Shown here: one piece after another, positions 42,211-64,000 of the stretch
Position numbering within the stretch: the first letter of the stretch is position 1
How the letters are laid out: the number at the start of each line of letters is the position of its first letter
DNA from: a virus
Lineage: Duplodnaviria; Caudoviricetes
IMG/VR virus record: IMGVR_UViG_3300031867_000015
Location: 1-64,000 of that record
Length of the DNA stretch: 64,000 bases
Strand: one strand, 5' to 3'
Program-made: the position numbers and the translations under genes
The notes under the pieces: model-generated
Told to the model about the DNA's origin: nothing
What the model saw: the letters and a program-made list of their open reading frames with translations, nothing else
Databases searched by the model: none

Positions 42211-42330
42211 GAACCATTTGTCTTGTAATAAGACTTCTTTCTTGCTTCAACGTCCTCGCAACCTACTAACTCCACAAGCGTAAATTCCGATAATTCCTAC
42301 CGTACTAATTGTTTATTAGACTGCTAATAA
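42189..42330 (-). ncRNA. TnpB omegaRNA (scaffold plus guide); 5' end approximate
   Basis: IS605-type right end directly after tnpB: gtacggtaggaattatcggaatttacgcttgtggag..gaagcaagaa..ggttcaa, then flank-derived guide. Confidence 0.7.
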
Positions 42331-43428
42331 TCCTTGTTTAAGAATATTCTTAGCCGCATTAATATCCCTATCATGTTTTGCACCGCACTCAGGACAAGTC
42401 CATTCTCTTACAGATAAATCCTTAGTCTCAGGATTTATACAACCACAACAACTACACGTTTGACTACTTGGACAAAACCTATCTATCTTTGAAATAGTCC
42501 TACCATACCAATCAGCTTTATACTGCAACATCCTTACAAACTCAGACCATGAACAATCTGATATGGACTTTGCAAGGCAATGATTTTTAACCATGCCTGA
42601 TACGTTCAAATCCTCTAAACAGATTACATCATATCTACGAATTAATTCAGTAGAGAGTTTTTGTAAGAAGTCTGTTCGCTGATTAGTTATCTTGTCCCAT
42701 GCTCTTGCTAATCTGATTCTTGCTTTGTCCCAATTGTTACTACCCTTTGACTTTCGGGATAGCTGTCTTTGTAACATAACAAGTTTCTTTTCTGATTTGG
42801 CAAGATACTTGGGACTTGATATTTTATCTCCATTTGATGTGATAGCAAAATCTTTAATACCGAGGTCAATGCCTACATTGCAATCAGTCCTTGTAAACGG
42901 TTCGTAGTTCTCTTGCTCTACTAAAACAGAACAATAATATTTACCACTTGGAGTTTGACTTATTGTAGCTGATTTGATTTTACCGTCAAACTTTCTGATT
43001 CCTCTTACTTTAACCCATTTGAGTTTAGGAAGTTTTATTTTGCGATTATCAAAATTAACTTCTATTGTAGGTCTGCCAATATAATTACAATTTGTTTTAT
43101 AAGACTTGCGATTATTTTTCTTAGACTTAAACTTCGGGAATCCTTTGTGTTCCCTAAAGAACTTTTGATATGCCGAATCGAGATTAATAACAGCATTATC
43201 TAAAGCAAATTTATCTACTTCTTTTAACCATTCGTACTCAGATTTGAGTGTGCGATTTTTGTAATTATTGACATCAATTTTAGACAAAGTTATTTCTTCT
43301 GTTTTGTACTTATTTATTTTATATGCTAAACATTGATTATACACAAATCGTACACATCCAAAAGTTTTCTGTATAAGTAACTCTTGTTCTTTATCTGGAT
43401 AAAGTCTGAATTTATAACCTTTTAACAT
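42316..43428 (-). CDS. tnpB: RNA-guided endonuclease TnpB (IS200/IS605 OrfB)
   Basis: [48 protein letters not shown]; RuvC D-E-D intact; no tnpA in window. Confidence 0.95.
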
Positions 43429-44374
43429 ACTTTTCCTTTTCTACCTCAAAATATTTCTTTATAACATTAAGACCGAGATTCATATTCATATCTATATTCT
43501 TTTTAATACTTTCAAAATCCCCACAATAACGACTTGTTGTAACAAGATTGCTGTGGTTTAAATCCCAGTTCAAGAACTGCATAGCCGCTGTGTGAGCCTG
43601 TCCCATATCGCCATACATTTCTTGGAAAAGCTGTTCAACTTTATTGGAATATAATTTTCTCAATGAATGGGTAGCGTATCTTACTTTACCATCTGTGCAG
43701 TTTTCTCTACCTTTAAGCTGTATACCCAAATCATCTACTAACTTTTTTGACATAAGATTATAGATTCTTGAATAACTTAATGGGTCAAGAATTTTATTTC
43801 CGTTCTCATCAAGTTCATACTGGAAGTCACCATTAATTTTTAAAGGTTTACCAGTCTTAGGGTCTTTAAGTTTGCGATAGTTTTTATATCCACCGTCAGA
43901 AATAATGAGCCAATCAAGCGGAGAAAAATCACCACTCCATGTTACCATAAGTACACACATCTTTATAGCATCATTGATATACATAGTACGTGGCTTTCCT
44001 GTTTTCAATTCTGAGAATAAACAGCTTTCACGGAACTTGTTATGCTCATTTAAAAAATCTATCCTCTTGATTATTCTTGCATCGGAGCATCTTACTCCCC
44101 AGTTTGCCTGTGTTACAAAGAATAATGCATCTCTGAATCCTTTATAACCACCTTGTTTGAAACAGGTTTCAAGTACCTGATTAAACACTTCTTCTGGCAA
44201 AGAATCCATGCCTATCTTTTCAGCCCTACGTTTTTCAAGTTCTTTGATTCTCTGATAATCTCCGTCCTGTATGTTTACATCGGGAACAAGGTCATCGAAA
44301 TCAATATCATCATTACCTAATCGGTCTGATATGTCAATTACCTGACATTCGTTTTCTTTTAATTTATGTATCAT
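43412..44374 (-). CDS. tyrosine recombinase/integrase family protein
   Basis: GVRCSD (R), ELKTGK (K), HSLRK (HxxR), LNHS (H), TSRY (Y). Confidence 0.85.
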
Positions 44375-57502: not shown

Positions 57503-57531
57503 ATTATATCATATACAATTTGCTCTGTCAA
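57503..57531 (-). promoter_or_regulatory. sigmaA promoter with inverted operator pair
   Basis: TTGACA-17-TATAAT; inverted operator copy at 57469-57484. Confidence 0.8.
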
Positions 57532-58047: not shown

Positions 58048-58288
58048 GATTATTCCTCCGTATAGTCTGTATCATCATATTCGCATGGTGCTTTATCGTC
58101 AGGGCATCGGTTCTCCCAGTGACAACAAGCACGTTCTTCGTCATCTTCTTTCCAGAAGTAGCAACAGTAACGTATGGTTCACCTATAGTCAATGATGTTT
58201 CCAGACCTATTGCATTAGCCTTCTTTGCGAACCTGTTAAACTGCTTTTGCAGTTCTTCCAAACGGTTCATAAAAATCGTCATTTCCAT
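57962..58288 (-). pseudogene. probable out-of-frame fusion of two genes
   Basis: 3' part reads YCCYFWKEDDEERACCHW..APCEYDDTDYTEE* in another frame, ending at 58050. Confidence 0.45.
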
Positions 58289-59151: not shown

Positions 59152-59474
59152 GATTATTTCCTCCTATTATGTATTTAGTAGTATTTCCAGTAGTCAGGGC
59201 TTTAGACCTTTTGACTGGTAACAAGCTACATTAACGGTGCATCCGCACCGCCTATCTGTATTCGTATCTGTATTCGGTGGACGTTCCGCAAGTTGTGGGA
59301 TATTCCCTCCCTTGCTTTCCGTGATGTTGGTATGATATTCAGTTGACGGAATTTCCTCCGCTGTCTGCATTGGAATTTCCGTCAGAATCTTTGCGTATGG
59401 TGGTAGTTCCGCAAGGTAATCAAAATACGTTGTCCCTTGCCAAAGGTAAAAACGTCTATGGTATTTTCTTGTCA

Positions 59475-59747
59475 TTATTCCTCATCCTCCTTAATGAATA
59501 AGTGTACACAGTCAACCATGAAGTCAAAGGCAAAACTGCTGAAAGTTCCACCGTATTCAATATACAGTGAGTTGTCAGAGTGTTCCCAGATATCACGGCA
59601 TATTGCTATGATATCCGCATCACTCATGCACTGGTCTGCACGTTTCAGCATAGCGGAATAATCCGCATTATTGCCCTTTGTGTACATTCTGTTCTTAATG
59701 CAGTAGTTGCGAACCTCGTCCGCAAACATTGTTTTGTCAATTGTCAT
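59475..59747 (-). CDS. hypothetical protein
   Basis: VRNYCIKNRMYTKGNNADY. Confidence 0.6.
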   Translation of the reverse strand: MTIDKTMFADEVRNYCIKNRMYTKGNNADYSAMLKRADQCMSDADIIAICRDIWEHSDNSLYIEYGGTFSSFAFDFMVDCVHLFIKEDEE

Positions 59748-59841
59748 AATTCATTCCTCCATATGAAAATTAGCATCCGTCTACTTTGGATATGACGGAG
59801 TAGCTTTAAAGGACTACGTTTCCGCAGTCCTCCCATCAGCG

Positions 59842-60024
59842 TTATGCTTTTTCGTCTATTGAAAAGTAAGTGTAGAACAGTTCTACAGCGGATTCATCGT
59901 CAATGTTAGTTCCAGATTCCAGAAGTCTATCTTCCAGATAGTCCTGACATTCGTTAAATGTTCCAGAGAACACAACGTCAGCAAAATTGCCGATTTGTTC
60001 CCATACCTGATATGTTTTCTCCAT
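59842..60024 (-). CDS. hypothetical protein
   Basis: ggaggt RBS. Confidence 0.55.
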   Translation of the reverse strand: MEKTYQVWEQIGNFADVVFSGTFNECQDYLEDRLLESGTNIDDESAVELFYTYFSIDEKA

Positions 60025-60064
60025 GATATACCTCCATTTTTATTATACAATTCATTCTTTGTTA

Positions 60065-60382
60065 TTAAACGAATGAAAAGTCGCTTTTTATAACCTCGAA
60101 TCCGATTGACTCTTGGTTGAAGGCTTGCTTTAAGGCGAGAGCCAGTCTTTTCATGCTCTCAATGTCAATGCCTGACACTTCGATTCTGAGTGTAGGCTCT
60201 TGTACAATCTCACCATTTTCGTGAGTGTACACTCCGCAGGCTTCGGTAATTGTACCAAAGCCGATGATCTCCGTGAGAAGATTTGAAGCCACTTTGTAAG
60301 CGTCAAGAGTTGACACTTCCTGAGCCTTTGAATCCTTGTCGAATAAGCCACAGAATAAAATTACCTTAGTTGCATTTGTCAT
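60065..60382 (-). CDS. hypothetical protein
   Basis: GLFDKDSKAQ..GVYTHENG..FNQESI. Confidence 0.65.
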   Translation of the reverse strand: MTNATKVILFCGLFDKDSKAQEVSTLDAYKVASNLLTEIIGFGTITEACGVYTHENGEIVQEPTLRIEVSGIDIESMKRLALALKQAFNQESIGFEVIKSDFSFV

Positions 60383-60459
60383 AATATACCTCCGTTTAAA
60401 GTCCATGAGACTATGTAATTGGTGCCAATCATAGCGGATTTACGCTAATCTTGACATAA

Positions 60460-61245
60460 ATAAAGCGGTAAATCGTAAGAAATACCGCTTGACAAATCAG
60501 ATAAATTATGATAAAATCAGTATGTAGGATTAGTCACTCAGATTAGCCAATTGTAGCTTATTGCCAATTATGGCAACTTCGGTTACTCACAGGTACAATA
60601 CTCTCATATTGCCGAGGGCTTCACAGCCTATCGTTTTACCCACCATCTGCATACAAGCTATAAAATACAGATGCATTTATTTTGACTATTTTTCACGCTA
60701 AGAGTGTATTCTTGCAAACGCACCCAACCCTAATCAGTACACGATTTAAGACGGTTTTAAGACTTTCAGCTTTTTATCTCACAAGTCAAAATAGAGAACT
60801 ACCAATATTTTGACCACGTTCCCCTGACAGATGTATGCATCCTAAGCCGTTTTACTTCCCATTTGTCACTTTAGTAAAACTACCCCCGATACACCTAACA
60901 CTACTTACAGATGTAAAGTCTGTTTTTGTGCGTTTTCAGTCAATTCGTGCTGTTTATTACAGCTTTACTTGCCTACTTTTCGCATCCGTGATACTTTAGT
61001 CAAACTACTATTTACCGCTTTACGTTGTGCTTTTTGGTTTAGCTGTAAAAAGATACAGCACCCCCCACGGCTCACTACAACACTTTTATCGTCAAATACA
61101 TGGAGTTAGAGCGTTCTCACTTGCATTGACTATCAGATTTTAGGTTACTGCAAACCACCTTTTTGCTATAGTATACCCCATAGACTTATAGGAAGGCTAT
61201 TCCTACGATGAACATTCAGCAAGTCTTTTTCAAGTCCCTTGCTAT
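60460..61245 (-). ncRNA. candidate large (~790 nt) structured non-coding RNA
   Basis: promoter at 61280-61252, terminator-like hairpin at 60463-60490, no ORF >=60 aa or clear RBS, many helices. Confidence 0.45.
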
Positions 61246-61247
61246 GG

Positions 61248-61474
61248 TTTTATTCTATCACATATTCACGAATTTGTCAACTGTCAAATTGCACAAACTT
61301 TAAACCGTGTTTTTGTGATATCTGATAAACTACATTGAAAAGCACTTTTCAGCTTTTTCAAGCTGTTTTTGTGTTTTGTTCATTTCGTTTACCGTGATTT
61401 TATTCTATCACATATTCACGAATTTGTCAACTGTCAAATTGCACAAACTTTAAACCGTGTTTTTGTGATATCTG
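61248..61474. repeat. 77-bp direct repeat x2 (period 150), each with a - strand sigmaA promoter
   Basis: 61248-61324 identical to 61398-61474; TTGACA-17-TAGAAT in each. Confidence 0.9.
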
Positions 61475-63615
61475 TCAATCGGAGCAAATCAAACATTTTT
61501 CAACTTTTTCAAGCTGTTTTGTGTTGTTGTCTGTTGACAGTTATTATTATAGCCGATATTGCACACGATGTCAATACTTTTTTTGACGTTCTACCTTTTG
61601 CACATATAATTATTGTTTTGCGATATCTTGTGTTGTATAAAATGCACTAAAAAAGGAAGAAAAATATACTCGATGTAGAAGTTCGGGTATATCTGATATT
61701 GATTTTTATACTGTCTGTATACTCTCTTTATATTCTAATAGGTATTATAATATTAATACCTATTAAATACAAAGAGAGCAATACGTTCATTTGATTTGCA
61801 AATAAGTTCTTATGAACCTATTACTATCAGAGCTGGAAACTGTATATACTGTATATGTACAATATATACAGTTTTGTAGTCCCGATAGATTCAACAGATA
61901 GTATAAATTATGTATCATTGGTTTACTATTTGTATATTTTGCGACCGTGTAAACCTTTACTTTTTGTATAGTCTATTTATGGCTATTTATAGCGGTTTAT
62001 TCACTGTTGAATAAAAATATACGATACTTTTTGAATATTTTTCAAATTGAATTTGACTGAATGTATAATAATTATTGTTTTTCAATATCAGTTTATTGAA
62101 TAACAATATTATTGTTAACATAGTAAACTAAATAGATGATATCAGGCTGTTTTGTAAAAAGATAAAATAAAATAGTCTTTTTGTGTTGTCTCAAAACAGT
62201 GTTTAAAATGCTTTTTGACGGCTTTTTATTATCGGAATGATATTATATTACCCATATGTTACAAAGGGCATTAGAAACGATTTTGCTGTTTTGTAGCGAT
62301 ATACGGTAGTTTGAAGGCTGTTGAAAACTTTGCTTTAATTGTTGAAAGTTGTATACATTGCACAAATGTATTCATTAAGTAGTGAATATTCATGAAGATA
62401 GATTCGGAGTTTATGCCTATATTTCGGATAGAATCGGGATTTTATGAATATGAATATTCAGTATTTTGTGTATATTTTAGTGTGTTTTGGTGTTATATTA
62501 CTTATTGTTTATTTGTATGGTATTTATACAGATTGTTATTGAAGTGAATGTGTTATAGGTATAGACTATTAATTTTATTTGTGTTATTGGTTTTAGTTAT
62601 ATATTATTGGTGCATTGGTTATGTGTTATGTTTTGATATCGGTATGATATCAAAATGATATCAAAAAATAAAAGTGTTGCAATTGCAACAAAACTACCGA
62701 CAAAATCACTGTAAACTAAAATTGCTTTACATATGTATATGGATATTATATAACAGCATTAAAAAAATATATATGAATGATTCTTCAATTGTTAAAGATT
62801 TATCGTATACTATTATAATATAAAAGGGAAATGTGTTAGGCGGTACTAACAGTAGGAAATGTGCGAACCTACTGTTAGCAAGCCCTAACTTGGCGATATA
62901 TAGGGGATTGGTTTACATCGTAAAATCTTTTAACAACTGTTTTACACGGTAAAGGTATTCCATTCACAGCCTTCAAAAAAAATTACATACACTTCATATG
63001 CACCTTATATACACTTCACATACATTCCAAAATGCAATTCAAAATCATATAACTTCACACATACTCTTATTGCTTCTCCCCCTCACCTCTCTCCCTCAAA
63101 ACTATCCCTTATCAGATATCGGCTTAATACATTCAATATAATATCTAATATTAAATTTCAAATAAACATCTCTTAATTCCTAAAAACTTAATCTAATCCA
63201 ATCAAGAACGTATCTATCCTATTATTTTATTATCTATATAATTAATCACTTTATAATACTCCTATTCGCTCTACAATAAACTACAATCAATTCTAACAAC
63301 ATAAGTAGTGTAACTATATTCTAATTAATACAAAGCCTTACAGCGCATTTAAAAGCGTATTATAATACTATAAAATATTTCCCATTCAATAAATAAAAAA
63401 CAAGTCAGATAGTTTTACCTTTAAGCGGATGCGAAGCAGACGATTAAAGGTAAATCTGATTATGCGAGTATGAGAACGAGCGGAGCGAATGTTCTCATAC
63501 GGCAGAATCAGACAATGCCATAGGCTACAATTAAGATAGTATTAATTAATAATCCAGTGTAAAAAATTGGGGGTATGTTTAATAGTAGCTATGCAACAAT
63601 TTTTGTAACGGTCTA

Positions 63616-63644
63616 TTGACAAAGAGTAAATTGTATGTTATAAT
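63616..63644 (+). promoter_or_regulatory. rightward sigmaA promoter with the same operator
   Basis: TTGACAaagagtaaattgtatgtTATAAT. Confidence 0.85.
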
Positions 63645-63932
63645 ATAAGTTAGAATGTGAGATGATAATTGTAGGATATTGTGAAGATAATTGCCCGAAC
63701 TCCGATTCTCTCCGTTCGTTCACTTATCTTCACGAACAATAATCCGCAAGCGGCTTATTGTTCCATCTCTTTTTTGTTTTTTATTTATTATTAATTATAT
63801 TATATATATTTATATTAATTATATTATATATTAATTATTGGCAAGCGTATCGGGTGTGTGTATTACGAGCAACGTAAACGACCAAAATCGGGACTATTTG
63901 CCTATGTATAGCGGTTTTTTAGGAATTGCACC

Positions 63933-63984
63933 CTCGCCTGAAATGTCCGAAAAAGGGGGTGTTTCTCGCCTGAAATGTCCGAAA
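63933..63984 (+). repeat. 20-bp direct repeat x2 (iteron-like)
   Basis: ctcgcctgaaatgtccgaaa at 63933 and 63965. Confidence 0.8.
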
Positions 63985-64000
63985 TTTTTAAAAACCTCTT

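Follow-up and report, generated by a model that had tools for sequence, protein, structure and literature searches.

There is little doubt that the minus strand of an uncultured rumen phage genome encodes a real, selected and so far uncatalogued large structured non-coding RNA at the start of its early genes. The best overall explanation of the locus, to which we assign a probability of roughly 0.55, is that this uncatalogued RNA is made as a free early RNA that is later silenced by antisense. The window analysed here comprises the left 64 kb (bases 1-64000) of a 115-kb IMG/VR virus record. The whole RNA, about 790 nt, is predicted at positions 60455 to 61245 (minus strand), from the start at the proximal early promoter to the end of a terminator tail, both ends being placed from consensus motifs. 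Within it lies a conserved core of about 480 nt (60491 to 60973, minus strand), defined by nhmmer homology across four lineages and closed by a 6-bp long-range helix.

Genomic setting

The record represents a Firmicutes-type phage whose related contigs were sourced from cattle and other rumen metagenomes. Nearly all genes of the window lie on the minus strand (G+C about 0.35), and the genome encodes a family-A DNA polymerase, a DnaB-like helicase, a RecJ-like nuclease, an anaerobic ribonucleotide reductase and a TnpB-type transposase. The helicase is only about 32% identical to any helicase of a cultured phage, the nearest ones belonging to Firmicutes phages. Four tRNAs are present in the genome, at 39.6-41.4 kb and thus about 19 kb away from the RNA locus, which is positioned at the head of the leftward (early) arm. 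To the right of the locus, an AT-rich zone without genes (61.7-64.0 kb) is followed by the rightward arm.

The first protein gene downstream of the RNA (60065 to 60382, minus strand) encodes 105 amino acids behind a strong ribosome site. This first early protein matches PF23780 (S-adenosylmethionine-lyase) at 19.9 bits, under the cut-off of 28, and a precomputed S-adenosylmethionine-lyase domain is found on two of its 122 homologs. These matches suggest that a putative anti-restriction gene stands directly after the RNA.

Homologs of the RNA

Using the 105-aa protein as an anchor, we fetched about 45 loci from related phages, and homologs of the RNA were recovered by nhmmer and by one motif scan of JGI metagenomes, which yielded two true copies. 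Six distinct further copies were obtained, giving, with the window copy, seven sequences in four lineages; all are located in the same slot on rumen metagenome contigs and derive from independent rumen samples. Full-length or nearly full-length homologs make up two groups of the close lineage, one comprising L052 (identical to L053 and L055) and the other L031, L050 and L051. The distant lineages, L025 (identical to L026-L028) and L032, have only the 3′ two-thirds in common with the window RNA. No match was obtained by distant blastn among INPHARED phage records, and two motif patterns found nothing in GTDB species-genome contigs. In IMG/VR, four motif patterns returned nothing similar beyond the phage's own record, the other hits being chance matches in coding DNA.

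The earlier note had proposed the entire stretch of about 790 nt as one structured RNA. Homologs with compensatory changes on the minus strand bear out the structured RNA, but only about 480-520 nt (60973-60455) are common across lineages and the 5′ 270 nt are lineage-specific. Comparison of the lineages shows short islands without any change, separated by variable stretches that also differ in length. The most conserved single-stranded element, 15-16 nt at 60769 to 60784 (minus strand), is invariant in all 7 copies, and complements of the two most conserved single-stranded elements, this one included, were found nowhere else in the 115-kb genome. Nucleotide identity between the window and L052 is 96% in the RNA core, compared with 71% in the neighbouring gene, which indicates that the cassette recombines independently of its neighbours. 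L052 also carries an extra ORF placed between the RNA and the 105-aa gene. The G+C content of the RNA is about 0.40, compared with 0.29 in the adjoining AT-rich zone.

Fold of the RNA

The core is closed by the helix 60973-60968 / 60496-60491 (6 bp), in which all cells of the alignment are paired and the only changes are one-sided switches between G·U and A-U. Its 5′ portion is domain 1 (155 nt, 60819 to 60973, minus strand), comprising a closing helix, a nested three-helix arm (60895-60833) and two further hairpins. In a plain MAFFT alignment of the five close copies, the 42 pairs of this domain were 99.5% paired and included 7 two-sided changes, compared with 31-43% paired and 0-1 two-sided pairs in slid controls, where partners were moved by 1-3 columns. 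A covariance model of domain 1 built from these five close sequences alone detected both distant copies, L032 at 60 bits (E = 7e-11) and L025 at 51 bits (E = 6e-9), and nothing else in 207 kb that included all other cassette types found at this position. In the seven-sequence alignment, where the two distant copies are those fitted to the covariance model, two-sided changes affected 15 of the 42 pairs and 97.8% of cells were paired (slid controls, 30-43%); since five of the seven sequences are close (93% identity), such covariation counts are partly non-independent. None of 500 shuffles reached the observed values. The closing helix of the domain (60943-60939 / 60828-60824) occurs in five sequence versions, all of which pair. 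Covariation among collected homologs, which the earlier note had named as one way to examine the RNA, goes beyond both slid controls and shuffles.

The same comparison reveals which strand is folded. G·U cells number 35 against a single A·C cell, and the opposite strand would be only 84.9% paired. This asymmetry identifies the minus strand, the sense of the early promoters, as the folded one.

The 3′ domain (60527 to 60822, minus strand) holds hairpins at 60815-60784, 60752-60727, 60725-60702, 60673-60644, 60641-60591 and 60577-60560, with the short helix 60822-60820 / 60529-60527 as a candidate for its closure. Within the close lineage only, the 3′ part (60822-60454) comprises 65 curated pairs, 99.7% of them paired, with 5 two-sided and 11 one-sided wobble-compatible changes. 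Of the three hairpins that bear GNRA tetraloops, two are either complete or wholly missing in any one close relative: the hairpin 60725-60702 is optional, as is one of the two GNRA-loop hairpins in 60641-60591. The two distant lineages have in common a 3′ domain distinct from that of the window, in which hairpins stand at matching places but differ in sequence, and a covariance model of the first 96 nt of the 3′ domain scored the distant copies at a non-significant 12-13 bits (E about 0.3). The 5′ domain (about 270 nt, 60974 to 61245, minus strand) is present in the closest lineage only and absent from L025 and L032; it too is folded and contains 6 one-sided wobble-compatible changes besides 3 two-sided ones.

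Several helices that had been read from the single sequence are upheld by the homologs. The 9-bp helix 60673-60665 / 60652-60644 carries three two-sided compensatory changes and the hairpin 60880-60873 / 60856-60849 carries two, while the hairpin near 61056-61039 is present and invariant. For the hairpin at 60577-60560 the outcome is mixed: it is present and invariant in the close lineage, but a different hairpin takes the same place in the distant lineages. The long-range pairing of 10 bp proposed between 60793-60784 and 60687-60678 exists as complementarity but is not supported as a helix, because its 5′ arm can pair locally with 60815-60806 instead and this local pairing covaries in a distant relative. 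The suggested pairing of the RNA's two ends found no support, the 5′ element forming a local hairpin of its own.

Two other readings of the locus were discarded. A 17-nt inverted repeat (61022-61006 / 60477-60461), considered as an antiterminator or as transposon ends, was rejected as a conserved feature because the nearest relatives keep the upstream copy together with a terminator stem that is unable to pair with it. A sponge similar to CsrB was dropped, as no loop motif is repeated.

The folding energy of the single sequence departs from that of shuffles by z = -1.3 over the entire stretch and by -1.9 in the core (-2.1 for the opposite strand). Being only modestly better than shuffles, it leaves the case to rest on the comparative data. 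The fold model consists of nested helices only, and structure across lineages is firm for domain 1, the core closing helix and a few hairpins, not for everything.

Coding capacity and known RNA families

The absence of coding sequence noted earlier for the stretch of about 790 nt holds on both strands and for ORFs as short as 8 amino acids. Between 61245 and 60455 there is no ORF of at least 60 aa, no Shine-Dalgarno motif precedes any ORF of at least 8 aa on either strand, and genetic codes 4 and 15 open no minus-strand ORF. Conserved small ORFs, which the earlier note had named as a finding that would speak against an RNA, do not explain the region, as no peptide is conserved among the homologs in any frame. 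No tRNA- or tmRNA-like parts were found in the RNA.

Large RNAs borne by phages are already known, and the earlier note had named ROOL and GOLLD as RNAs of similar size to neither of which the stretch could be assigned; our searches agree. All 4227 Rfam families, searched both at the gathering score and at E up to 10, gave only unrelated sub-threshold chance matches. The ROOL model (RF03087; gathering score 99.1 bits) had no match at E up to 10 in 59800-62200 or in five homologous loci; over the whole 115-kb genome it scored three candidates, none with an E of 10 or better, and control genomes likewise gave no match. The covariance models of GOLLD (RF01998) and OLE (RF01071) were also without a match.

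ROOL is a large multi-domain RNA of 581 nt on average that was first found in rumen and is carried by phages and prophages (PMC5737381, PMC12286853). The RNA described here, with its core of about 480-520 nt, is likewise a large, multi-domain, phage-borne RNA of the cattle rumen without a known protein partner or function. However, ROOL is usually found near tRNA islands, whereas this RNA is 19 kb from the tRNAs, behind early promoters and facing a convergent promoter. GOLLD, also phage-borne and about 800 nt long, is conserved in its 3′ part and less so in its 5′ part (PMC12286853), a layout that recurs in our RNA. Unlike GOLLD, the latter is not near tRNAs and is far rarer, with seven distinct copies, all of them from rumen. 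Membership in either family fails because no model matches and the genomic setting is a different one. To our knowledge, ROOL and GOLLD are self-assembling cages of unknown purpose, and bacterial or phage RNAs of such size and complexity are rare, those that are understood being ribozymes or ribonucleoprotein cores.

Early promoters, terminator and convergent promoter

Three tandem promoters lead into the RNA on the minus strand. The two recognized earlier, at 61280 and 61430, are real, each matching the consensus at 11 of 12 positions with an extended -10, and a third matching at 12 of 12 begins at 61574. In the direction of transcription, early promoter 1 (61546 to 61574) has a perfect sigma-A/sigma-70 consensus and is followed by promoter 2 (61402 to 61430) and the proximal promoter 3 (61252 to 61280), which lie within a 150-nt tandem repeat; the transcript from promoter 3 is predicted to start near 61245. 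Consensus promoters of this sigma-A type number 16 in the 64-kb window, against 0.6 expected by chance. Downstream of the RNA, the next minus-strand promoter is at 57531, which leaves about 3 kb without a strong sense promoter.

At the other end, the terminal hairpin and T-rich tail described in the earlier note are present, with the hairpin at 60490-60463 and the T tract interrupted (60455 to 60490 in all, minus strand), and together they probably form a leaky intrinsic terminator. A terminator scanner missed the hairpin because its loop is 12 nt long. Relatives keep a hairpin at this position with a different stem sequence.

The plus-strand promoter that had been read at 60489 to 60517 is also real. 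The 64 kb contain just one other plus-strand promoter of consensus type. The promoter at 60489-60517 has an extended -10, converges on the early promoters and overlaps the core closing helix, on its 3′ strand, with the -35 box; its transcript is predicted to start near 60524. With varying spacer and -10, this promoter is kept in 3 of 4 lineages and in 5 of the 6 other copies (L031, L050, L051, L052 and L025). The L032 copy has no -10 box and so no antisense promoter, and keeps the fold. On the plus strand, a terminator-like hairpin (61350 to 61365) lies inside the promoter repeat, and a second, weaker copy is found about 150 nt upstream. As judged from sequence, these hairpins in the promoter repeats would halt antisense transcripts before they exit the locus.

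An exchangeable cassette in sister phages

The arrangement of the locus is common to the roughly 45 related loci, in which one to three tandem early promoters are followed by 600-1000 nt without a called gene and then by the anchor gene. The content of this gap varies between unrelated cassette types. In the closest relative, the flanks are 94-97% identical to those of the window; homology ends at 61236, about 10 nt past the -10 box, and resumes at 60444, just beyond the terminator, with a different sequence of 601 nt between the promoter and the terminator region. Unrelated cassettes occupying the same slot in close relatives show that the RNA is a swappable accessory module. The other cassette types are not detected by nhmmer or by the covariance model, and we therefore rejected the idea that they are divergent members of the RNA.

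Type A cassettes (L002:3339-3939; L023:2200-2640; L024:3050-3495), carried by the closest relatives, contain a small hydrophobic ORF preceded by a strong ribosome site. Copies agree in this site and in the start codon but differ in the ORF body, which has been replaced (26 aa vs 31 aa). A 3′ element forms pairs with the ribosome site, in which relatives differ by one compensatory change, and the cassette closes with a convergent consensus promoter. In type C (L029:2677-3421), a 30-aa hydrophobic ORF behind a ribosome site is followed by a hairpin and a convergent consensus promoter. From these features, at least two of the cassette types look like type I toxin-antitoxin loci. A common fourth cassette, type D (L033:1760-2460, L034-L046; about 560 nt), ends in a perfect convergent promoter, its copies, at 93-99% identity, being too similar for a folding test. 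A convergent consensus promoter ends every cassette type, with the exception of the L032 lineage of the RNA type.

Possible roles of the RNA

The features described above are consistent with the following course of events. Transcribed on the minus strand from the three strong tandem promoters, the RNA would be the earliest product of infection and probably also the most abundant one. Termination at the end hairpin would release most of it as a discrete free RNA, and the remaining transcripts would continue into the early genes and supply them, no strong promoter being available to these genes for about 3 kb. The RNA would then adopt a compact tertiary structure, as suggested by its multi-domain fold, closing helix, modular GNRA hairpins and invariant single-stranded elements, and may work as a free scaffold, decoy or assembly in host takeover or counter-defence. 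Such a role is the natural guess because a putative S-adenosylmethionine lyase adjoins the RNA. Once the early promoters fade, antisense RNA from the convergent promoter would interfere with the sense RNA and silence it. We regard this mechanism, trans-acting and silenced by antisense, as plausible, with a likelihood that comes close to even odds without reaching them. More tentative, and on balance rather improbable, is the further proposal of a new class of large ornate RNA serving on its own as a first-strike effector, made in bulk within the first minutes after infection, forming a compact and possibly multimeric particle that would disable a host function or defence, turned off by antisense, and functionally interchangeable with the small membrane-toxin cassettes of sister phages.

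An alternative to a free RNA is a leader acting in cis on the early operon, which would modify RNA polymerase or switch its fold and so bring about processive antitermination or attenuation. HK022 put, lambda nut/boxA and the Bacillus EAR are cis-acting antitermination RNAs of about 70-120 nt that are essential to their own operons. Like them, the RNA directly follows early promoters and precedes terminators through which the operon has to be transcribed: all early transcription has to pass its end hairpin, no strong promoter follows until 57531, and the segment 60793-60784 has two alternative partners that could form a switch. This alternative pairing, however, is not conserved in the distant lineages, and the RNA is 5-10 times larger than put, nut or EAR. 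At 480-790 nt and with modular GNRA hairpins it is too large for the type, the antitermination RNAs known to us all being far smaller. The RNA is, moreover, dispensable: sister phages with 94-97% identical flanks do without it and carry unrelated cassettes, some of them similar to type I toxins, which makes a core regulatory role unlikely, and in L052 another ORF separates the RNA from the first gene. We thus find a cis-acting leader doubtful. Action in trans is favoured over it because the fold is large and has a closing helix and GNRA modules, because the invariant elements have no complementary target elsewhere in the genome, and because of the interchangeability with toxin cassettes.

That same interchangeability raises the question of whether the RNA is itself half of a sense/antisense pair similar to a type I toxin-antitoxin system, of which txpA/RatA and bsrG/SR4 of Bacillus prophages are examples; the peptide would have been lost or the sense RNA would itself be harmful, and mutual neutralisation would be the only point of the pair. 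As in such systems, a strongly promoted sense RNA is opposed by a convergent promoter that overlaps its 3′ part, and types A and C fill the same slot with small hydrophobic ORFs behind ribosome sites, with the same promoter in the same position and, in type A, a 3′ element whose pairing with the ribosome site is maintained by a compensatory change. Nevertheless, the RNA has no small hydrophobic ORF with a ribosome site on either strand, no peptide is conserved in any lineage, and its sequence does not resemble that of the toxin-type cassettes. A conserved multi-domain fold of about 480 nt goes far beyond what an antisense target needs, and L032 keeps this fold without the antisense promoter, so we judge a pair of this kind improbable. 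It is less probable still, to the point of being hardly credible, that no functional RNA exists and that the helix-like inverted repeats belong to DNA in decay or to an element acting at the DNA level, such as an origin, a packaging site or operators. The locus does adjoin a 2.4-kb AT-rich gene-free zone between divergent arms, folding z-scores are modest on both strands, and closely related phages manage without the RNA, but compensatory changes keep the pairing across four lineages, an excess of G·U over A·C is unexpected for double-stranded DNA sites, the stretch is conserved at least as well as the gene beside it, and the G+C content is well apart from that of the AT-rich zone.

The structured RNA, which we take as the preferred reading, constitutes a new family of large phage RNA and adds to the few giant phage RNAs of unknown function. 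Its distinctive setting is proximal to promoters, opposed by antisense and swappable. This setting is unusually informative: the RNA is the predicted very first transcript of a lytic-type phage, placed between tandem promoters and an antisense promoter and exchanged with toxin-like cassettes, a context that confines its role to the very beginning of infection. Natural genomes with and without the RNA are on hand for comparison, and its function, if found, could illuminate large phage RNAs in general.

Further observations on the early arm

Most minus-strand promoters between 12711 and 63644 of the window share a conserved spacer motif, and the three promoters before the RNA are without it; the sequences hint at two classes of promoter in the window. 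The 2.4 kb between the divergent arms (61700-64000; G+C 0.29) are gene-free, rich in palindromes and 94% identical in the closest relative. A segment at 61683-62078 has no homology to this relative, which carries a divergently transcribed 68-aa ORF there (L002:2989-3195), and in most relatives a gene of 62-73 aa is called at the corresponding place. Further into the early genes, the window has 666 nt with two small ORFs (59371-60037) that are extra relative to the closest relative, and at 58059-58168 it is missing a 1.2-kb segment with a 384-aa ORF. Such insertions and deletions are typical of a mosaic early region. Among the early genes of L032, a type-P5 twister ribozyme is matched at 43.3 bits (L032:2710-2777, plus strand; Rfam gathering score 37.6), a match that the window does not have. 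A TnpB/IS605-type transposase pair of 370 and 320 aa (42316-44374, minus strand) lies within the phage genome.
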